Source of the DNA: a virus
Taxonomy: Duplodnaviria > Heunggongvirae > Uroviricota > Caudoviricetes
Reading direction: 5' to 3' (one strand)
DNA: 11,238 bases
Virus record (IMG/VR): IMGVR_UViG_2531839178_000011
Location: 1-11,238 of that record
The notes under the pieces were generated by a model. The model had not been told where the DNA came from, did not search any database, and saw only the letters and a program-made list of their open reading frames with translations. Shown one piece after another: positions 76-10,997 of the stretch; the stretch's first letter is position 1; the number at the start of each line of letters is the position of its first letter. Made by a program: the position numbers and the translations under genes.

Positions 76-750
76 ATGAATTCCCAGGCAACAAAAGATA
101 TTCCCTGCTTCCGTTCTTATTTGCCTGATGCCCTGCGTTTAAGATTTGAAGATAAACTGACCATCCGGGCCATCGCTCAGCGTCTGGGTCTCAGTCATTC
201 CACAATACATACGCTTCTTCAGCGATTTCTTGCATCCGGTATCGCATGGCCATTGCCCGATTCAGTTTCATTCGCTCAACTTGACGCCATCCTTTATGCC
301 AACAGAAAGAAGGAATTAACAGAGCCTCAAATCAGAGAAGGCTCATGGCGAAAAGAACGGCGAACCAGCTATAGCCGTGAATTTAAGGTCCGTCTGGCTA
401 AGCAGGCGTTACAGCCTGGGGCTGTTGTTGCCCGGATCGCCAGAGAACACGATATCAATGATAACCTGCTGTTTAAATGGAAAAGCCAGTACGAGGACGG
501 CTTACTGAGCGATGATGACATACAGGAATGCATGCCTGTCCCGGTGGCACTGACTGATACGCCGGAGCCGACCAGACCAGTTACAAATCCCTTCTGGCGT
601 AACAAGCATGATGAGCGCCCTGAGGGGGCTCCCGGAAACGTCCCACGGTGCGAGCTGCATCTTAAATCAGGTGTGGTAAAACTGTTTGACCCTCTCACTC
701 CGGAACTGTTACGGGCGCTAATCCGCGAAATGAAAGGGGGTATCCGATGA
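76..750 (+). CDS. tnpA: IS66-family accessory protein (TnpA/orf1-like), 224 aa with two helix-turn-helix-like segments
   Basis: The C-terminal half (RRTSYSREFKVRLAKQ...VARIAREHDINDNLLFKWKSQY) is an insertion-sequence orfA-type helix-turn-helix. The stop overlaps the next start as ATGA (747-750). The protein is longer than I expect for IS66 orf1, so the true start may be downstream of 76. Confidence 0.75.
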   Translation: MNSQATKDIPCFRSYLPDALRLRFEDKLTIRAIAQRLGLSHSTIHTLLQRFLASGIAWPLPDSVSFAQLDAILYANRKKELTEPQIREGSWRKERRTSYSREFKVRLAKQALQPGAVVARIAREHDINDNLLFKWKSQYEDGLLSDDDIQECMPVPVALTDTPEPTRPVTNPFWRNKHDERPEGAPGNVPRCELHLKSGVVKLFDPLTPELLRALIREMKGGIR

Positions 751-1094
751 TAACGCTGCCGACCGGTACCAGAATCTGGATCATCGCTGGCATCACAGAT
801 ATGCGTTGTGGCTTCAATGGCCTGGCTTCGAAGGTGCAGAACACGCTGAAAGATGACCCGTTCTCCGGGCATATCTTCGTCTTCCGGGGCCGCAGTGGCA
901 AAATGGTGAAAATACTGTGGGCCGATCGTGACGGGTTATGCCTGTTCGCCAAACGCCTGGAACGGGGCCGCTTCGTCTGGCCGGTGACCCGGGAAGGGAA
1001 AGTGCACCTGACGCCAGCTCAGTTATCCATGCTACTGGAGGGGATCGCGTGGCAACATCCCAAACGGACAGAACGGCCTGGCATCCGGATATAA
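747..1094 (+). CDS. tnpB: IS66-family Orf2 (TnpB of IS66; unrelated to the IS200/IS605 TnpB nuclease)
   Basis: 115 aa, MITLPTGTRIWIIAGITDMRCGFNGLA...LWADRDGLCLFAKRLERGRFVWP, a typical IS66 orf2 length and sequence pattern. Translationally coupled to the upstream ORF by an ATGA overlap. Confidence 0.9.
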   Translation: MITLPTGTRIWIIAGITDMRCGFNGLASKVQNTLKDDPFSGHIFVFRGRSGKMVKILWADRDGLCLFAKRLERGRFVWPVTREGKVHLTPAQLSMLLEGIAWQHPKRTERPGIRI

Positions 1095-1113
1095 CCCGTG
1101 ATAAAACAAGGGA

Positions 1114-2715
1114 ATGAACAATGAACTCCCCGATGATATTGAGCTGCTTAAAGCCATGTTGCGTAAGCAACAGAGTCGGCTTCGACAGTATGCCTGTCAG
1201 GTCGCGGGCTATGAGCAGGAAATTGAACGGCTGAAAGCGCAACTCGACAGGTTGCGTCGTATGTTGTTCGGCCAGAGTTCAGAGAAAAAGCGTCATAAGC
1301 TTGAAAATCAGATCCGACAGGCAGAAAAACGACTGTCGGAACTGGAAAACCGGCTGAACACAGCCAGAAATCTTCTGGAAGATGCATCGTCAGTCACAGA
1401 TTCACCTGACACCAGTCCCCCGTCAGAAAACCCGATCGCCAGTAAGCCTGAATCCCCGGGACGAAAATCTTCACGAAAACCGCTGCCGGCAGAACTTCCC
1501 CGGGAGACACATCGCCTTCTGCCTGCTGAAACCAGTTGCCCGGCCTGTGGAGGTGTTCTGAAAGAAATGGGGGAAACAATCTCAGAGCAACTGGATATCA
1601 TTAATACCGCCTTTAAAGTTATCGAAACCATACGTCCCAAACTGGCCTGTAGCCGGTGTGATGTCATCGTTCAGGCACCACTTCCCCCTAAACCGATCGA
1701 ACGCGGTTATGCCAGTGCAGGGTTACTTGCACGGATCCTGGTCAGCAAATATATGGAACATATCCCTTTATATCGCCAGTCAGAAATATACGCGCGACAG
1801 GGCGTGGAGCTGAGCCGTAATACCATGGTGCGCTGGGTATCAGAAATGGCAGACAAACTCCGTCCTCTGTATATAGCGCTGAATGACTATGTTCTGGAGG
1901 CAGGAAAGGTGCACGCAGATGACACTCCGGTGAAAGTACTGGCCCCGGGGAACGGAAAGACGAAAACGGGTCGTCTGTGGGTATACGTCAGGGATGATCG
2001 TAATGCGGGTTCATCCCTGCCGGCAGCCGTCTGGTTCGCGTATTCGGCAGATCGCAAAGGAGAACATCCGCAGCTCCACCTGGCAAAGTATCAGGGCGTA
2101 CTGCAGGCTGATGCCTATGCAGGTTATAACGTACTGTACGAAACGGGCCGGGTGAAGGAAGCCGGGTGCCTGGCCCACGCCCGCCGAAAAATCCATGACG
2201 AGGATGTGCGCCGTCCGACAGAAATGACTCAGGAAGCGCTCAGACGGATAGCAGAGTTATACGACATAGAAGCGGAGATACGTGGCAGTCCGGCAGAGGA
2301 ACGGCTTGCAGTCAGAAAAGCCAGAAGCGTCCAGTTGATGCAGTCGTTGTACGACTGGATACAGTTGCAGAGGAAAACGCTGTCGAAACATGCGGAGATG
2401 GCGAAGGCGTTCGACTATATCCTGAATCACTGGAATGCGCTGAACGAGTTCTGTCGTGACGGCTGGGTGGAAATAGACAACAACATCGGTGAAAACGCGT
2501 TACGATCGGTGGCGGTTGGAAGAAAAAATTATCTCTTTTTCGGCTCAGACAAGGGAGGAGAAAGTGCGGCGATCATCTACAGTCTGCTGGTCACCTGCAA
2601 ACAGAACGAAGTGGAGCCGGAGGACTGGTTGCGCGAAGTGATCGAGAAGCTCAATGACTGGCCGTCGAACCAAGTGCATGAACTGCTGCCCTGGAACTTC
2701 TCGTCTGTAAAATAA
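1114..2715 (+). CDS. tnpC: IS66-family transposase (TnpC/orf3)
   Basis: 533 aa with an N-terminal coiled-coil/leucine-zipper region ([14 protein letters not shown]...[12 protein letters not shown]) and CxxC...CxxC zinc-finger-like motifs (CPACGG...CSRCD), followed by a large catalytic domain. It sits 20 bp after orf2 and is preceded by AAGGGAATGAACAATG. Confidence 0.92.
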
Positions 2716-2748: not shown

Positions 2749-3054
2749 GAAAAAGCAGAAACCAAAGGCGCGAAAGCCGCAAAGAACAGCGCTGCACAGG
2801 AAAACCCGGCACCGCTGGCAGACGTTATTGTGGCTGACGGTCAGGCGAATGAACCACGTCCGGCTGAAGACCCGGTTGCTGTACAGGGTGACGCCCCTGT
2901 CCGGCTGAACGTCAGGGCCGTGTCTGAAAACGGGTTCTGGCGCTGTGGCCGTTTCTGGTCACATATCGGTGAGGATGTGGCGGTGAGCGCTGCGGTTGCC
3001 ACCCGCCTGATGGCAGAGCCGAATCTGATTGTCCGGGAAGCGGAGAAAGGCTGA
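2749..3054 (+). pseudogene. 3' fragment of a phage head-region gene, apparently 5'-truncated by the IS66-family insertion
   Basis: Frame 1 is open from the IS terminus to the TGA at 3052-3054 and reads ...AKAAKNSAAQENPAPLADVIVADGQANEPRPAEDPVAVQGDAPVRLNVRAVSENGFWRCGRFWSHIG...EAEKG. The first in-frame start is a GTG at 2830 with no convincing Shine-Dalgarno. Its position directly upstream of the gp36-like gene suggests a Mu gp35-type head-associated protein, but the family is not confidently recognised. Confidence 0.5.
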
Positions 3055-3176
3055 TGGGATACATCACGCAGGAAGACCTGTTACGCGCGGACGGCAGAGC
3101 CGAATCTGATTGTCCGGGAAGCGGAGAAAGGCTGATGGGATACATCACGCAGGAAGACCTGTTACGCGCGGACGGC
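3015..3176. repeat. Perfect tandem direct duplication, 2 x 81 bp (3015-3095 and 3096-3176)
   Basis: The two 81-bp units are identical base for base and are bounded by GGCA microhomology at 3012-3015, 3093-3096 and 3174-3177. Each unit carries the upstream gene's TGA, a GGAGAAAGG Shine-Dalgarno and the ATG plus first 14 codons of the next gene. Confidence 0.95.
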
Positions 3177-3572
3177 AATCTTGTCTGGAACATGGCGATT
3201 AACCGGGAAACCAACGGGCTGGATGAAGACAAAATCCGTCAGGCCATCAGTGATGCGGAAGCGGAAATTGATTCGTTTCTGTCCCGCCGCTACCAGCTGC
3301 CGCTGGGGGTGACGGAAATCCCGCGCCCGCTGCAACGCGTGGCGGTATCGCTGGCGTTTTACTGGTTATCAGAGCGTGACAATCAAATCACGGAGCTGAT
3401 CCAGAAACGCTACGACGACGCCATTAAAACCCTGCGTGAAATGGCGAACGGCACCCGTGACCTGGGCCTGCCGACGTATGCCACCCCGGCAGAAACCGAC
3501 AACGGGAAAATTATTGTGGTGGGTGCCAATGCCCGGCTGTTCACCCGTAACAACCTGAAAGGGGTGCTGTGA
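3054..3572 (+). CDS. Mu gp36-like phage protein (DUF1320-type), with a 27-aa N-terminal duplication if translated from the first ATG
   Basis: MGYITQEDLLRADG...AISDAEAEIDSFLSRRYQLPL...KRYDDAIKTLREMANGTRDLG matches the Mu gp36 family pattern as I recall it. The second in-frame ATG at 3135, with an identical Shine-Dalgarno, would give the native-length protein. The stop overlaps the next start as ATGA. Confidence 0.8.
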   Translation: MGYITQEDLLRADGRAESDCPGSGERLMGYITQEDLLRADGNLVWNMAINRETNGLDEDKIRQAISDAEAEIDSFLSRRYQLPLGVTEIPRPLQRVAVSLAFYWLSERDNQITELIQKRYDDAIKTLREMANGTRDLGLPTYATPAETDNGKIIVVGANARLFTRNNLKGVL

Positions 3573-4722: not shown

Positions 4723-4888
4723 GCCAGCGCGGGAAAACGTCCGTGTCCGTAAACCGGATGGCGCACATTTATCCCCGGAAGGGGAACGTCTCAACGTCTG
4801 CGCTTACTGGCTGCGCCGTGAAGCCGAGGGAGATGTGGAAATAACCACACTTCCGAAAAATAACAACAAAACCAGAGGGAAAAAATAA
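4688..4888 (+). CDS. Mu gp38-like small phage protein (DUF2635-type)
   Basis: Small ORF immediately before the sheath gene, with its stop overlapping the sheath start (TAATG). An alternative start at ATG 4703 (MEQKLIKPAREN...) has a better GGGGTGA Shine-Dalgarno-like sequence and may be the real start. Confidence 0.55.
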   Translation: MYGVTMEQKLIKPARENVRVRKPDGAHLSPEGERLNVCAYWLRREAEGDVEITTLPKNNNKTRGKK

Positions 4889-6361
4889 TGTCGCTGGGTT
4901 CCATTCCTGATGATATCCGCGTCCCGCTTGTCTGGATCGATATCGACAATTCACAGGCGCTGGAGGGTGCATCCGCGCAAAGCCGAAAAATTCTGGTCAT
5001 GGGCCATGCGGTATCGTCCGGCAGCGCAGACGCCCTGTCACTGACCCGTATCACCAGTGACAGCCAGGCAGACCAGCTTTATGGCAAAGGGTCGATGCTG
5101 GCTGAAATGCTCAAAATGCTGCGTCGTGCCAACACGTACACGGAAACCTGGGCGATGCCGGTTGCCGCTCCTGAAGGCGCTGCCGCAAAAGCCACGCTGA
5201 CCGTGCTGGGTACAGCGACCGAAGCCGGAACGGTGGCACTGCTGATTAACGGTGTGTCCGTTCAGGTGAGCGTGAGCGCCGGGGATACGAAGGAAAACAT
5301 TGCAAAAGCCATTGCTGATGCGGTGACGAAAAAGCCTGCCACGCAGGTGGCCGCTGCGGTGAAGGATGATGCCACGGATACCGTGGAGCTGACCGTGAAC
5401 TGGCACGGCGTCACCGGCAACGGTGCCGACGTTCGCCTGAACTACCACACCGGTGAAGCCTTCCCGGCAGGTGTGAAGGTGACCGCAACCGCGTTTACCG
5501 GCGGCACCGGGACACCGGAAATGGCAGACGCCGTTGCGGCCATCGGCCCGGAGTGGTTTACCGATATCATCGCCCCGTTCACCGACACGAAAAGCCTGAA
5601 CACCCTGCGTGATGAACTGCTGAACCGCTGGGGGCCGCTCAAAATGATGGAAGCGCAGCTGTGGACGGCGTTTTGTGGCACGCACGGGGAAACCGGCACG
5701 TTTGGTGAAACCCGCAATGACTGGCTGATTAGCTGCATCGGCACCAACCTGTCGCCGCATCCGGCGTGGATGTGGGCCGCGTCATACGGCGCAACGGCAG
5801 CGTATCACCTTGCCATTGACCCGGCGCGTCCGCTTCAGACGCTGGTCCTGACCGGCATTCTGCCGCCTGCGCGTAATGTTCGCTGGGATATGGGAACGTA
5901 ACCTGCTGCTGCATGACGGCATTGCCACGCACATGGTGGACGCCGGGGATAACGTCTGCATCGAGCGTGAAATCACCATGTACCGGGTTAACCAGTACGG
6001 TGATGCGGATGTGTCGTATCTTGATGTGCAGTCACCCGCCACGCTGGGCCGTATCCGTTACATCATTAAAAACCGTTTCTCGAACCGTTATCCGCGCCAC
6101 AAGCTGGCGGATGATGACGTGCTGGACTCGCTGGATGCGGGGCAGCCGGTGATGACGCCGAAGCTGTGCACTGCAGAGCTGCTGGATATCTGCCAGACCG
6201 AACTTCTCCCGGCGGGCCTTGTGGAAAACTTCAGCGATTACAGGGACACGCTTCAGGTGACACGCGACAGCAGCGATAAAAACCGCCTGAACTTTATCTG
6301 CCACCCGAATCTGGTGAACCAGTTGCGTGTGCTGGCAGGCCTGATTCAGTTCAAGCTTTAA
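4888..6361 (+). pseudogene. Phage contractile tail sheath protein (Mu L-like), reading frame broken once
   Basis: Frame 1 (4888-5901, 337 aa) and frame 2 (open from 5852 to 6361) together give about 490 aa, a full-length sheath. The switch must lie in 5852-5898. The start is preceded by AGAGGGAAAAAATA. This may be a real mutation or a sequence error. Confidence 0.8.
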
Positions 6362-6728: not shown

Positions 6729-7124
6729 ATGGCCGCAATGGAATTTGAACTGAAACACGGGCTTCTGACCGGCAAAGGCACGGCAGATGAAACCCTGCAT
6801 AAAACCGTGAAACTGCGCGAACTGACCGCCAGTGATGTGATTGATGCGCAACTGGCCGCAGAACGCGTCGTCATGGGCGGGAACGGAAAGGCGGTGGCCT
6901 ACTGTTCTGAGGTGCTGATGGGACTGGAGATGATGCGCCGTCAGGTTGCGTCAATCGGTAATATCCCCGGCCCGCTGGACATGAAACAGCTGCGAATGCT
7001 CCACCCGGCAGACCTTGAGCTTATCAGCACGAAAGCGGCTGTGCTGGATGACATGCTTGAGGAGGTGGCAACGCGGGGGCGAACTGATGCCGCTGGCGTC
7101 GGCACTGATGAACCTGCTGGTTAA
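6729..7124 (+). CDS. Phage tail assembly chaperone (Mu gp41-like)
   Basis: 131 aa between the tube and tape measure genes, the conserved position of the tail assembly chaperone. An overlapping +1-frame extension is annotated separately. Confidence 0.65.
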   Translation: MAAMEFELKHGLLTGKGTADETLHKTVKLRELTASDVIDAQLAAERVVMGGNGKAVAYCSEVLMGLEMMRRQVASIGNIPGPLDMKQLRMLHPADLELISTKAAVLDDMLEEVATRGRTDAAGVGTDEPAG

Positions 7125-7224
7125 CCTGTCTTCGCGATTCAGCATTCAGTACCTGGAACAGCTGCCCCTGCGGCAGTTGTTCCGCCTGATAAAGCAACTG
7201 GAGAAACAGCATGGCAACAGGTAA
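6985..7224 (+). other. Out-of-frame (+1) extension ORF overlapping the chaperone 3' end; candidate translational frameshift product
   Basis: Frame 1 is open from 6985 to 7224 and overlaps the tape measure start at 7211. Its distal part (ELMPLASALMNLLVNLSSRFSIQYLEQLPLRQLFRLIKQLEKQ) looks like real protein, while the chaperone's frame-3 tail (RGRTDAAGVGTDEPAG) looks degenerate. The -1 frame is full of stops. Confidence 0.4.
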
Positions 7225-8953
7225 CCGTCTCAGCACGGAAATCATGATCAACCTTGCCGGGAACCTGACCGCCAAAGCCCGGCAGTACGGTGCAAACATG
7301 TCGCAGTTCGCCCGGAACAACCAGAAGGCCATGCGCCTGGTCAAAGCCACAACGGAGGCTGCCGGGCGCAGTCTGGATGCGCTTGGCAACCGCTACACGG
7401 CGATGATTGCCGGGTTCGGTGGTGGTATGACCCTTAAAGGCCTGACAGATTTTGATGCGCAAATCCGCCGTGCGGGTACAAATGCAAAACTGACCGATGA
7501 GCAGGTATCCCGTTTAAGAAAAAACATCCGGGAAACCGCCAGAATGTCAGACATTCGCCTCAGTGCCCAGGTCTTACTGGAAGGCCAGGATGCACTGTAT
7601 GGCCTGACCGGTAAGCCGGAATTTGTTGAAAAAAACATCCGCAATCAGGGGCTGGCCACGCAGGCATTCGGGACTGCGCCACAGGATGCCGCGGCACTGA
7701 TGGCACAGATGTCCGAAAAACAGATTGAAGCGCCTCAGGAGGTTGAAGGCATGTTCGACCGCTTCTACCACCAGTTTTCCATTGGTTCGGTTGGTGTGGA
7801 TCAACTGGCGCGTGTATCAGCAAAACTGTTTTCGATTTATACCGGTGGTGGCAAAGAGGCGATGGCCCAGTTGGGGGCACTTGAACAGATGCTGGCAAAA
7901 ACAACCGGCTCTGCGGATGAAGCGGTGACCGCGCTGAACAGTATCTGGAGTGAAGTCACCCGAAAAGACAATATCAAGTTTCTGAAAAGAAACGGGGTTG
8001 ATGTGCTTGATCCTGTCACAGGAAAACCCCGTCTGCCTTATGACGTAATCAGAGACGTTGTCAGGCGGGCAAAATTTAATGAGCAGAACTTGCAGGATGT
8101 TTTCGGGGATACTTCCATGCGTGGATTAAGGGCACTGCTCAGTGAAGACGCCCTTCAGCTAACAGAAAAAATGATTTACGCCCCGGTTGAATCCGGTGCC
8201 ATGAGAAAAGCTGCGGAGAAAAACGCCCGGAGTTTTCAGTCTGCGATGCAGTCCCTGAAGAATGAATATGAGGTTTTTGCTGAAAAAAATCTGGCAAAAC
8301 CCGTTCAGGACCTGGCGGATGCCATCAACAGCGTGGACCAGAACTGGTTGCAGGTCGGTAAATATATGGCAATTGCGCTGGGTGGCATTATCGCCGTACG
8401 TAAGACGTACAAGCTCGGTAAAACCATCCACGACATCATGAATCCCAAAGGGAAAGGCAAAGGGATACCCGGCAGCGTGGCAGACGGCAACCCCGGCTTT
8501 GCCATCGGGCTGTCACCGGATTATCAGCCGGTATCTGACAGCCTGCAAAAGAACATTGACGACTTCCGCCAAGTGGTTGTGCTGGGAGCCCTGCTGGGAC
8601 AGGCCAGTGCCGTGGCCTCGATGACGTTCGATACCCGTGATGCGGCGTTATCTGCCGGTGACACGCTGGCGGCTGAACTGCATGAGCAGGCGGTGGCGGC
8701 GGTGGAAAACAACCAGCGGACATTGTGGCGAACGCTGCGCGATTTACGGCAGGCCGTGATTACGGATGCCCGCGAGCGTGCCGCCCGTCTGCCGGAAACC
8801 CGGCAGGTGACGCTGACCACAACCACCTCTGCCGCATTGCTGGCATGGCGCGAGCATGGTGACACACGCCGACGGGATGAAATCGTGCAGCGTAACCGCC
8901 TGCGTCATCCGTCATTCATCCTGCCGACGCAACCTGTGGAGATCACCGACTGA
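7211..8953 (+). CDS. Phage tail tape measure protein
   Basis: 580 aa, the largest ORF, immediately after the chaperone/frameshift region. It is helical and Ala/Gln/Leu-rich with a hydrophobic segment (YMAIALGGIIAVRKTYKLG). Shine-Dalgarno GGAGAAACA before the ATG; its stop overlaps the next start (TGATG). Confidence 0.8.
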   Translation: MATGNRLSTEIMINLAGNLTAKARQYGANMSQFARNNQKAMRLVKATTEAAGRSLDALGNRYTAMIAGFGGGMTLKGLTDFDAQIRRAGTNAKLTDEQVSRLRKNIRETARMSDIRLSAQVLLEGQDALYGLTGKPEFVEKNIRNQGLATQAFGTAPQDAAALMAQMSEKQIEAPQEVEGMFDRFYHQFSIGSVGVDQLARVSAKLFSIYTGGGKEAMAQLGALEQMLAKTTGSADEAVTALNSIWSEVTRKDNIKFLKRNGVDVLDPVTGKPRLPYDVIRDVVRRAKFNEQNLQDVFGDTSMRGLRALLSEDALQLTEKMIYAPVESGAMRKAAEKNARSFQSAMQSLKNEYEVFAEKNLAKPVQDLADAINSVDQNWLQVGKYMAIALGGIIAVRKTYKLGKTIHDIMNPKGKGKGIPGSVADGNPGFAIGLSPDYQPVSDSLQKNIDDFRQVVVLGALLGQASAVASMTFDTRDAALSAGDTLAAELHEQAVAAVENNQRTLWRTLRDLRQAVITDARERAARLPETRQVTLTTTTSAALLAWREHGDTRRRDEIVQRNRLRHPSFILPTQPVEITD

Positions 8954-10055
8954 TGGAATCCGTGATTCTTACCGTTGACGGCAAACTGTGGGAAGGCTGG
9001 ACGGAAATGTCCGTCAGCCGTTCCCTGAAGGCGATTGCCGGTGAGTTTGAACTCAGTGTGACAACCCGCTGGTCAGCGGCGGCACCGCGCGTGATTCGTG
9101 AGGGGCAACCCTGCACGGTCAGGCTGGGCGCGGATACCGTGCTGACGGGGTATATCGATGATTTTATTCCCGGCTATGAGGCTGAAAACGTGGAGATTCG
9201 CGTCATGGGGCGCGATAAAACCGGCGACCTGGTGGACTGCTCTGTGGTGCATTCGTCCGGGAAATGGAAAGGCGTGCGGCTTGAACAGGTGGCGGCTGAT
9301 GTCTGCCGCCCGTTCGGGATAACCGTCATCACGGAAACCCCGACCGGGGAGGCATTTGCGTCTGTCGTTCTGGAACAGGGTGAAACGGGCTTTGAACTGC
9401 TCGACCGGCTGGCAAAACAGCGCGGCGTTCTGCTGACGTCTGACGGCGCGGGTAACCTGATTATCACCCGCGCCTCTTCCGTTCGCGCGGGCGTGTCACT
9501 GGTGCTGGGAAAAATATCCTCGCCGCCCGTGGGCGCTTCAGCTGGCGGGAGCGTAACAGCCAGTACATCATCAAGGGCACCACCAGTGCCCGTGGCAAAC
9601 TGTGGGACAGCCAGCCTGCCCCGATGGTGGGCGGTCGCCAGTACATCACCGAAGCCCCGGAAATTAACCGTTACCGCCCGCGCATTCTGGTCAATGAAGA
9701 CAGCCTGACCGTGGGCGGGGCCAGCATTCGCGGGGAATGGTACAAAGCCCGGATGCTGGGAGAGTCCCGCACGACGGAAATCACGGTGGCAGGCTGGCGC
9801 GAACAGGGCGACAGCGGCCCGCTGTGGCAGACCAACCGCCTTGTCGATATCGACGACAGCATTCAGAACCTGAAAACCACCTGGCTGATATCCGGGGTGA
9901 CATGGACGGATGGCGCACAGGGGAGGATGACGGTTCTGGCGCTGGTTCCGCCTGAATCACTGGACATGCCGGAAATGAAAGCGAAGACGAAAAAACAAAG
10001 GCGGTGGCCACATGGGATTAAACGCAATTGCCCGCCGCCTGCGACTGATGGTTGA
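8953..10055 (+). pseudogene. Phage baseplate hub / tail protein D (P2 gpD / Mu P-like), reading frame broken at an A5 run
   Basis: Frame 1 (8953 to about 9510) and frame 3 (open from 9456 to 10055) join into one protein of about 367 aa (...ITRASSVRAGVSLVLGK/NILAARGRFSWRERNSQYIIKG...). The junction is the A5 run at 9510-9514; one more A restores the frame. This may be a real mutation or a homopolymer sequence error. Confidence 0.8.
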
Positions 10056-10548
10056 CCGCGCTGTTGTCCGCCTGGTGTCTGACGGTCTGGCACGGCAGAA
10101 CCTGCAAATTCAGACGCTGGCAGATGCCACCGATGACGACGTGGAACGCTTCCAGAACTACGGGTTTACGTCCGTTCCGCCGGAAGGTTCTGAAGCCATT
10201 GTGATGGCCGTTGGCGGACGGCGTGACGGGCTGGTTGCCATCGCGGTGGAAGACAAGCGATGTCGCCCGAAAGGACTGTCCCCCGGCGATGTCAGGGTGT
10301 ATCACCGGGACGGCAAATCACACATCACCCTGAAGGAAAACGGCGTCATTGAAATCACAGGAGAACAATTAGACTTTTCAGGGAAAACGGTAAATCTCAC
10401 TGCCGACGAACTGCTGAATATTATCGGTAAACAAATGAAATTCGTCGGTCCCTGTGAATTCACTGAAGATGTCAGAATCAAGGGTAAATCATTCAGCGAA
10501 CACATTCATAAGGACGGCGACAATGAGAATACATCACCGCCCGTATGA
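10012..10548 (+). CDS. Phage baseplate assembly protein V / spike-like protein (Mu gp45-like)
   Basis: 178 aa, preceded by AAAGGCGG. Position after the hub gene and size fit the V/spike family. It overlaps the hub ORF's 3' end by 44 nt. Confidence 0.75.
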   Translation: MGLNAIARRLRLMVDRAVVRLVSDGLARQNLQIQTLADATDDDVERFQNYGFTSVPPEGSEAIVMAVGGRRDGLVAIAVEDKRCRPKGLSPGDVRVYHRDGKSHITLKENGVIEITGEQLDFSGKTVNLTADELLNIIGKQMKFVGPCEFTEDVRIKGKSFSEHIHKDGDNENTSPPV

Positions 10549-10997
10549 CGACAGAAATCCGCTGGAATAACATGCTCTCACGGGGTGACATCACCGTCAC
10601 CCATAACGGCCTCTCACGGGATGAGGGGCTGGTCACTCAGGTTCTTATCTGCCTTTTCACCGATGCCCGCGCTGATGACGATGATGTCATTCCTGACGGC
10701 TCCGGCGACCCGCGCGGCTGGCCGGGCGACACGTACAGCGATTTTTCGTGGGGTTCCCGCCTGTGGCTGCTTGAGCGTGAAAAGCTGACGGAAGATGTCC
10801 GCCTGCGCGTGGAAGATTACGCGCGGCTGTCCATGCAGCCGCTTCTGCGTGCCGGTTACGCCCGTAACGCCACCGTCACGGCCAGCATCATCATTCCTGA
10901 CCGTATTGCCTTTCTGGTGGTGTTAACCCGCCCGGACAAAACCACACTCAGAATCGAAATCACCCGTCGATGGGAGGCCACCATTAATGCCGTATGA
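10545..10997 (+). CDS. Mu gp46-like baseplate protein (GP46 / gp25-W-like)
   Basis: 150 aa, ATGA-coupled to the upstream gene, in the position of gp46 in Mu-like baseplate modules. Confidence 0.7.
   Translation: MTTEIRWNNMLSRGDITVTHNGLSRDEGLVTQVLICLFTDARADDDDVIPDGSGDPRGWPGDTYSDFSWGSRLWLLEREKLTEDVRLRVEDYARLSMQPLLRAGYARNATVTASIIIPDRIAFLVVLTRPDKTTLRIEITRRWEATINAV

Follow-up and report, generated by a model that had tools for sequence, protein, structure and literature searches.

An inherited one-nucleotide deletion in the baseplate hub gene of a decaying Mu-like prophage remnant of Shigella

Introduction

Cryo-electron microscopy of phage Mu has described gp44 as a trimer whose tube-like domains form a pseudo-hexameric ring and whose C-terminal domain holds both the spike and the tape measure's C-terminus (PMC11915804). 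The stretch of DNA analysed here (11,238 nucleotides, hereafter the window) is contig AKNA01000011.1 of assembly GCA_000268145.1, the species name Shigella boydii being taken from the names under which the sources list the proteins of this contig. Its tail genes are Mu-like neighbours (sheath, tube, gp41-type chaperone, tape measure, gp43/DNA-circularization, hub, gp45 spike, gp46), with the order gp43-like, hub, gp45 spike, gp46 the same as in Mu, and in the window as in 20 related loci the hub lies between the genes for gp43 (DNA circularization/tube initiator) and gp45 (spike). When its reading frame is repaired, the hub aligns end to end with Mu gp44 (gene P; 1WRU/9KI1) and with the MuSo2 protein 3CDD, with which it has the Pfam domains GpP-like_1st, Gp44-like_2nd and GpP_4th in common. 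Unlike Mu gp44, however, the window hub has been interrupted after codon 187 by a 1-nt deletion and carries a second 1-nt deficit near its 3' end, and unlike a viable Mu phage, it sits in a head-less, IS-ridden remnant.

Two further systems are relevant to such a locus. IS expansion and reductive evolution have shaped Shigella genomes, whose IS-driven decay is well known. Like the pseudogenes of other defective prophages of Shigella and E. coli, the remnant, taken over the window and its related loci, carries multiple independent inactivating lesions (IS66, IS3-family and IS4-family elements, small indels and a microhomology-bounded deletion) that are nested by strain phylogeny; set against that class it shows nothing unusual and is a typical member. 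The second system is the programmed −1 frameshift sites of bacterial IS elements and of dnaX, which combine an X_XXY_YYZ heptamer with stimulators (Sharma et al. 2014, PMC4066793). The window likewise has an in-phase heptamer and a downstream hairpin, but unlike the programmed sites, it stems from a recent deletion, it is not conserved and its hairpin is indistinguishable from chance.

The comparisons reported below indicate, with a probability of about 0.9, that the hub gene was broken by a real 1-nt deletion (A6 to A5) passed on by vertical inheritance, and that the gene is a pseudogene in one S. boydii / S. dysenteriae lineage of this Mu-like remnant.

Results

In frame 1 the hub gene reads GTG CTG GGA AAA ATA TCC, with a run of exactly five A residues (Table 1). 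The frame-1 ORF that starts at 8953 reads ...VSLVLGK, continues into low-complexity ISSPPVGASAGG... and stops at 9706-9708; its 251 residues comprise 187 native ones followed by 64 that are out of frame. Frame 3 reads NILAARGRFSWRERNSQYIIKG... from 9513 and remains open until 10055. The original prediction had described a baseplate hub gene broken at A5, a low-complexity continuation in the original frame, and frames 1 and 3 that join into one continuous protein. All of this is borne out; one correction concerns the last residues that are in frame, which are G186 and K187.

Table 1. Features of the window discussed in the text (nt, nucleotides; aa, amino acids).
Feature	Position	Strand	Basis or remark
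IS66-family element, three intact ORFs (224, 115, 533 aa)	76..2715	+	Pfam HTH_Tnp_1, TnpB_IS66, DDE_Tnp_IS66
Perfect 81-bp tandem duplication (2.0 copies, 100% match)	3012..3177	+	Repeat over gp36-like gene start
Tail sheath gene, now two ORFs (337 and 161 aa)	4888..6361	+	2-nt CC deletion between 5892 and 5893
In-frame fusion of tape-measure N-part and gp43 C-part, 580-aa ORF	7211..8953	+	1,376-nt deletion
Hub pseudogene (Mu gp44/GpP-like), 5' part, frame 1, residues 1-187	8953..9513	+	Pfam GpP-like_1st (4-88), Gp44-like_2nd (90-173)
In-phase X_XXY_YYZ −1 slippery heptamer G_GGA_AAA, created by the A6 to A5 deletion	9507..9513	+	Sequence reading
A5 run, frameshift site; ancestral A6	9510..9514	+	Comparison with related loci
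Hub pseudogene, 3' part, frame 3, ancestral residues 188-346	9513..9989	+	Pfam GpP_4th (258-338 of restored protein); alignment to 3CDD, 1WRU
Second 1-nt deficit, A6 vs A7	9990..9995	+	Private to window contig
Spike gene (Mu gp45-like), intact	10012..10548	+	Pfam Phage_Mu_Gp45

A repaired hub protein of 356 aa was obtained by inserting one A at each of two sites, the A5 run and the run at 9990-9995. Its residues 2-348 align with two solved hub proteins, uninterrupted at the junction and at a level far above chance, namely 3CDD, the 43-kDa tail protein of MuSo2 (E=1.7e-101), and gp44 of phage Mu (1WRU/9KI1, E=2.8e-63). Pfam recognizes GpP-like_1st, Gp44-like_2nd, Phage_GPD and GpP_4th (PF21683, PF22255, PF05954 and PF21929) in the repaired protein. 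Instead of an uninterrupted hub ORF of ~356-380 aa, the window contains a 251-aa and a 143-aa ORF, and within the Mu gp44/GpP baseplate hub family the locus counts as a pseudogene and not as a working member. The truncated product retains domains 1 and 2 only. Without the second tube-like half, and without the C-terminal domain by which the hub touches spike and tape measure, the 251-aa protein would be unable to build a trimeric, pseudo-hexameric hub.

Related loci were compared by means of a SNP matrix covering ~7.5 kb and 19 loci, with E. coli as the outgroup, which resolved three clean clades. Clade I (the window, L013, L004 and L011) has A5 in the hub and a sheath gene that has lost CC; clade II (L003, L005-L007, L009, L010 and L012) has A5 and an intact sheath gene; clade III (L014-L021, named S. 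boydii) has A6 and an IS3-family insertion upstream of the sheath gene. A6 is found at the hub site in clade III and in the E. coli-type loci L001 and L002, and every hub homologue outside clades I and II is a single ORF with A6. In E. coli relatives that are 96-99.5% identical at the DNA level, A6 goes with an uninterrupted 1,071-nt CDS of 356 aa. In the comparison with homologues, which had been proposed as a check, hub proteins are 356-357 aa long, with no end close to residue 186. With a 91-nt probe that spans the site, 57 matching places were obtained in 49 complete E. coli genomes, 98.9% being the best identity; as all 57 matches span 92 nt against the 91-nt query, they have A6 and none has A5. 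Scanning GTDB species-representative genomes for the exact site, with either A5 or A6 allowed, gave no match, nor did scanning a phage collection with the hub region, and an Rfam scan of the whole window returned no family.

The repaired window protein itself exists in nature. Exactly this sequence (P0036) is encoded by clade III S. boydii assemblies, among them CP026875.1 and AERN01000091.1, its N-terminal 187 residues being identical to those of the window hub, and the remnant that carries it lies in the same chromosomal context (IS66 on the left; Mom, a 205-aa gene and IcmF on the right). R214 and A235, which lie downstream of the frameshift, were considered as signs of relaxed constraint; this reading was rejected because intact P0036 has both. 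Substitutions downstream of the frameshift since the event number zero, so relaxed selection cannot be shown and the event is young.

The hub is one of several damaged genes. Homology to a complete E. coli prophage starts only at window position 2748, just after the major-head gene of that prophage, and the IS66-family element abuts this point, which implies that the head, lysis and early genes are gone. The CC deletion in the sheath gene also occurs in L004, L011 and L013, where it defines a sub-clade, while the other loci have an intact gene of 491 aa. The 1,376-nt deletion, with 6 nt of microhomology at its junction (8468-8473), is common to the window and L013 (ERR200314) only; relatives have separate genes of 614 and 424 aa in place of the fusion. 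The lesions are nested in the order IS66, hub A5, sheath CC loss and 1,376-nt deletion. Two hub variants (P0002 and P0006) have the same junction and are further decayed by other indels, and IS elements have inserted into the tail-fibre region of related loci. With essential modules lost and several independent inactivating lesions accumulated, the element is a defective (cryptic) prophage. Given that the sheath, tape-measure and tube-initiator genes are broken as well, the hub gene would have no remaining function in the window strain.

Some lesions lie outside this series. Both the stop of a 74-aa ORF and the start of the gp36-like gene fall within the 81-bp duplication, and the gp36-like product is 172 aa vs 145 aa. 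L003-L012, the other loci in which this region is represented, lack the duplication, and L013 starts inside the second copy, as expected if that genome has the repeat. In L003, L005 and L007, the IS66 transposase gene has an internal deletion that starts at window position 1457. In L014/L015 (3239-4395), the DUF2635 gene has been destroyed by an IS3-family element (rve transposase) inserted between the 203-aa gene and the sheath gene, so the copy in the intact-hub clade is also defective, by a different lesion. The Logan contigs L009-L013 all have the same right end, at about window position 10953 inside the gp46 gene, which points to a repeat that also occurs in another copy of a Mu-like prophage in those genomes.

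Loss of the frame need not mean that all full-length protein is lost, since the deletion placed a slippery heptamer in phase at the frame junction, with GGA AAA as the zero-frame codons. Upon a −1 slip both tRNAs re-pair perfectly (GGA to GGG, AAA to AAA) and reading continues AAT ATC CTC, which yields LGK-NIL, the wild-type sequence. The measurements on this motif in Sharma et al. (2014, PMC4066793) show that it is shifty in E. coli, frameshifting amounting to 0.117% for the heptamer by itself, to 0.51% when the IS911 stimulators are present and to 17% when it is combined with the IS3 pseudoknot. By analogy, an efficiency of about 0.1-0.5% would be expected at the window site. A GC-rich hairpin (predicted at −18.8 kcal/mol) starts 8 nt downstream of the heptamer, leaving a 7-nt spacer. 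Its stability does not stand out from that of shuffled sequences (z = −1.11, 36 of 200 shuffles folding as well; z = −1.54 for the 87-nt context), and it pre-exists in the intact allele.

Low-level leakiness at the hub frameshift is therefore plausible, and complete loss of the full-length product is not proven. A stronger proposal is that the locus is a leaky 'pseudo-pseudogene', in which −1 slips provide a low level of full-length wild-type hub that is biologically used. It would apply mainly to clade II, in which sheath, tube, tape measure, gp43, spike and gp46 are intact. Against it stand the homologues outside clades I and II, which are all single ORFs, so that a two-ORF arrangement is not conserved, and the state of the element, which has no head genes, is still decaying and in the window strain has three other broken tail genes. 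As the arrangement is not conserved and the element is decaying, nothing suggests that any leakiness is used, and I regard such use as highly unlikely. A shade less likely still is the more specific notion that in clade II a trickle of slipped wild-type hub limits or tunes the assembly of tail-like (tailocin-like) particles from the head-less Mu remnant. Transcriptional slippage was set aside as a means of rescue, as efficient slippage of this kind would require runs of ~8-9 A or T.

The presence of A5 and A6 alleles in near-identical backgrounds within Shigella boydii, together with the existence of the exact repaired protein, could also be taken to mean that the hub is a contingency locus, in which reversible A5/A6 switching turns its expression off and on. 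The distribution of the alleles on the SNP tree speaks against this. Clades I and II have A5 in common along with five derived SNPs (6579, 7099, 7327, 8572 and 10204), and homoplasy is absent; the A5 and A6 clades are further split by at least 12 SNPs, as fits a single change, and the length of the tract does not vary among close relatives independently of phylogeny. This congruence indicates a single inherited deletion, not a reversible switch. A run of 5-6 nt is, moreover, shorter than the tracts typical of contingency loci, and since the surrounding element has no head genes and is still decaying, there would be nothing useful to switch. Phase variation is thus barely credible here.

The same verdict applies to the proposal that the true run is A6 and that the gene is intact in the window strain, the A5 being a sequencing or assembly error. 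Homopolymer under-calls are common, and there is indeed one homopolymer difference that is private to the window contig, at 9990-9995. How reproducible A5 is was assessed across independent assemblies only. A protein identical to the truncated 251-aa product (WP_004996591.1, 'MULTISPECIES [Shigella]', including S. dysenteriae 155-74) was found on 95 contigs (104 index blocks) that stem from many independent projects and assemblers. The carriers comprise three megabase-scale contigs, several draft genomes and many Logan assemblies of raw runs, and include CP027027.1, PSSP01000001.1 and UYIS01000022.1. A5 was present in 10 of the 10 fetched loci inspected and is the allele of the window and L003-L013. 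The indel being reproduced in this way, an error private to the window assembly is excluded. The five SNPs congruent with A5 point in the same direction, as does the general quality of the window contig, which has one private indel in 7.8 kb relative to its closest relative, with 28 of 29 homopolymers of at least 5 bases identical. An error at this site is accordingly extremely improbable.

An E. coli locus shows what a genuine error looks like. In L022 (GCA_027274555.1, JAPXBT010000005.1, 1-10291), the hub is also broken at the junction, which could be counted in favour of an error in the window as well. Relative to L001, this locus has no fewer than 22 single-base indels over 8.4 kb, most of them in homopolymers, and almost all of its tail genes are fragmented. 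To judge from its sequence, it looks like an uncorrected error-prone assembly, and its 'truncated hub' (MCZ5371851.1) is probably an artefact. The hub protein P0003, which comes from this assembly and has an LGK-ISS junction like that of the window, had suggested an independent recurrence in E. coli, which is rejected on account of these indels and fragmented genes. The signature of L022 is not seen in the window.

The original prediction held that one additional A restores the frame. This is true of the A5 run, but it does not fully restore the gene, because there is a second deficit at 9990-9995 which the prediction overlooked. At this position the window has A6, and all 19 other loci have A7 or AAGAAAA. 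It is the sole difference over 7,807 bp between the window and its closest relative, L013, which is the Logan assembly of ERR200314. As a result of the deficit, the last 8 residues of the hub, TKAVATWD, are replaced by 19 foreign residues, and the ancestral stop (TAA, 10019-10021) is missed in favour of one at 10053-10055. The ATG of the spike gene and the ancestral hub stop overlap by 10 nt, as they do in L001. The 143-aa product that results from the deficit is recorded on 1 contig only, so that, in contrast to A5, this indel is not reproduced in independent assemblies, A6 occurring in the window contig alone. For an indel that is private and lies in a 7-mer, the alternatives are a homopolymer miscall and a mutation of very recent date. 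I consider the miscall the likelier of the two, a rather confident preference that is my own estimate and draws on the homopolymer miscalls familiar from draft assemblies.

Discussion

The inherited A6 to A5 deletion in the hub gene fits the following history of the remnant. The ancestral hub gene was a single ORF of 356 aa, as it still is in clade III. Loss of one A from the short homopolymer would have occurred by an event of the replication-slippage type. The allele distribution places the change from A6 to A5 once, after the IS66 element had taken out the head module, and before the lesions of the sub-lineages, i.e. the loss of CC from the sheath gene, the 1,376-nt deletion in the tape-measure/gp43 region and further indels in the hub gene itself. 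The original prediction had named both error and real slippage or phase variation as possible causes of a homopolymer indel. A real mutation of the slippage type stands; error fails on the 95 contigs and the ten A5 loci, and phase variation on the SNP tree. Its core reading was right, although it did not recognize the defective state of the whole prophage.

The hub frameshift is ordinary gene decay that has already been catalogued, the truncated product being in RefSeq. With regard to annotation, the 251-aa and 143-aa 'proteins' should be recorded as one pseudogene. The locus may also serve as a worked example of how a real frameshift can be told from a homopolymer miscall without raw reads, the approach consisting of an exact-product look-up over independent assemblies combined with congruence with a SNP tree. 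The nested lesions (IS66, hub A5, sheath CC loss and the 1,376-nt deletion) provide cheap lineage markers for S. boydii / S. dysenteriae strains. Beyond annotation hygiene the importance of the finding is small.

A separate observation concerns the gp41-type tail assembly chaperone. A second ORF, of 69 aa and in the +1 frame (7015-7224), overlaps with that of the chaperone (6729-7124, frame 3) and reaches the start of the tape-measure gene, and a GGGGG run lies at 7075-7079. There is no canonical −1 heptamer in this region (6729-7224); the 69-aa ORF may be a frameshift extension of the chaperone.
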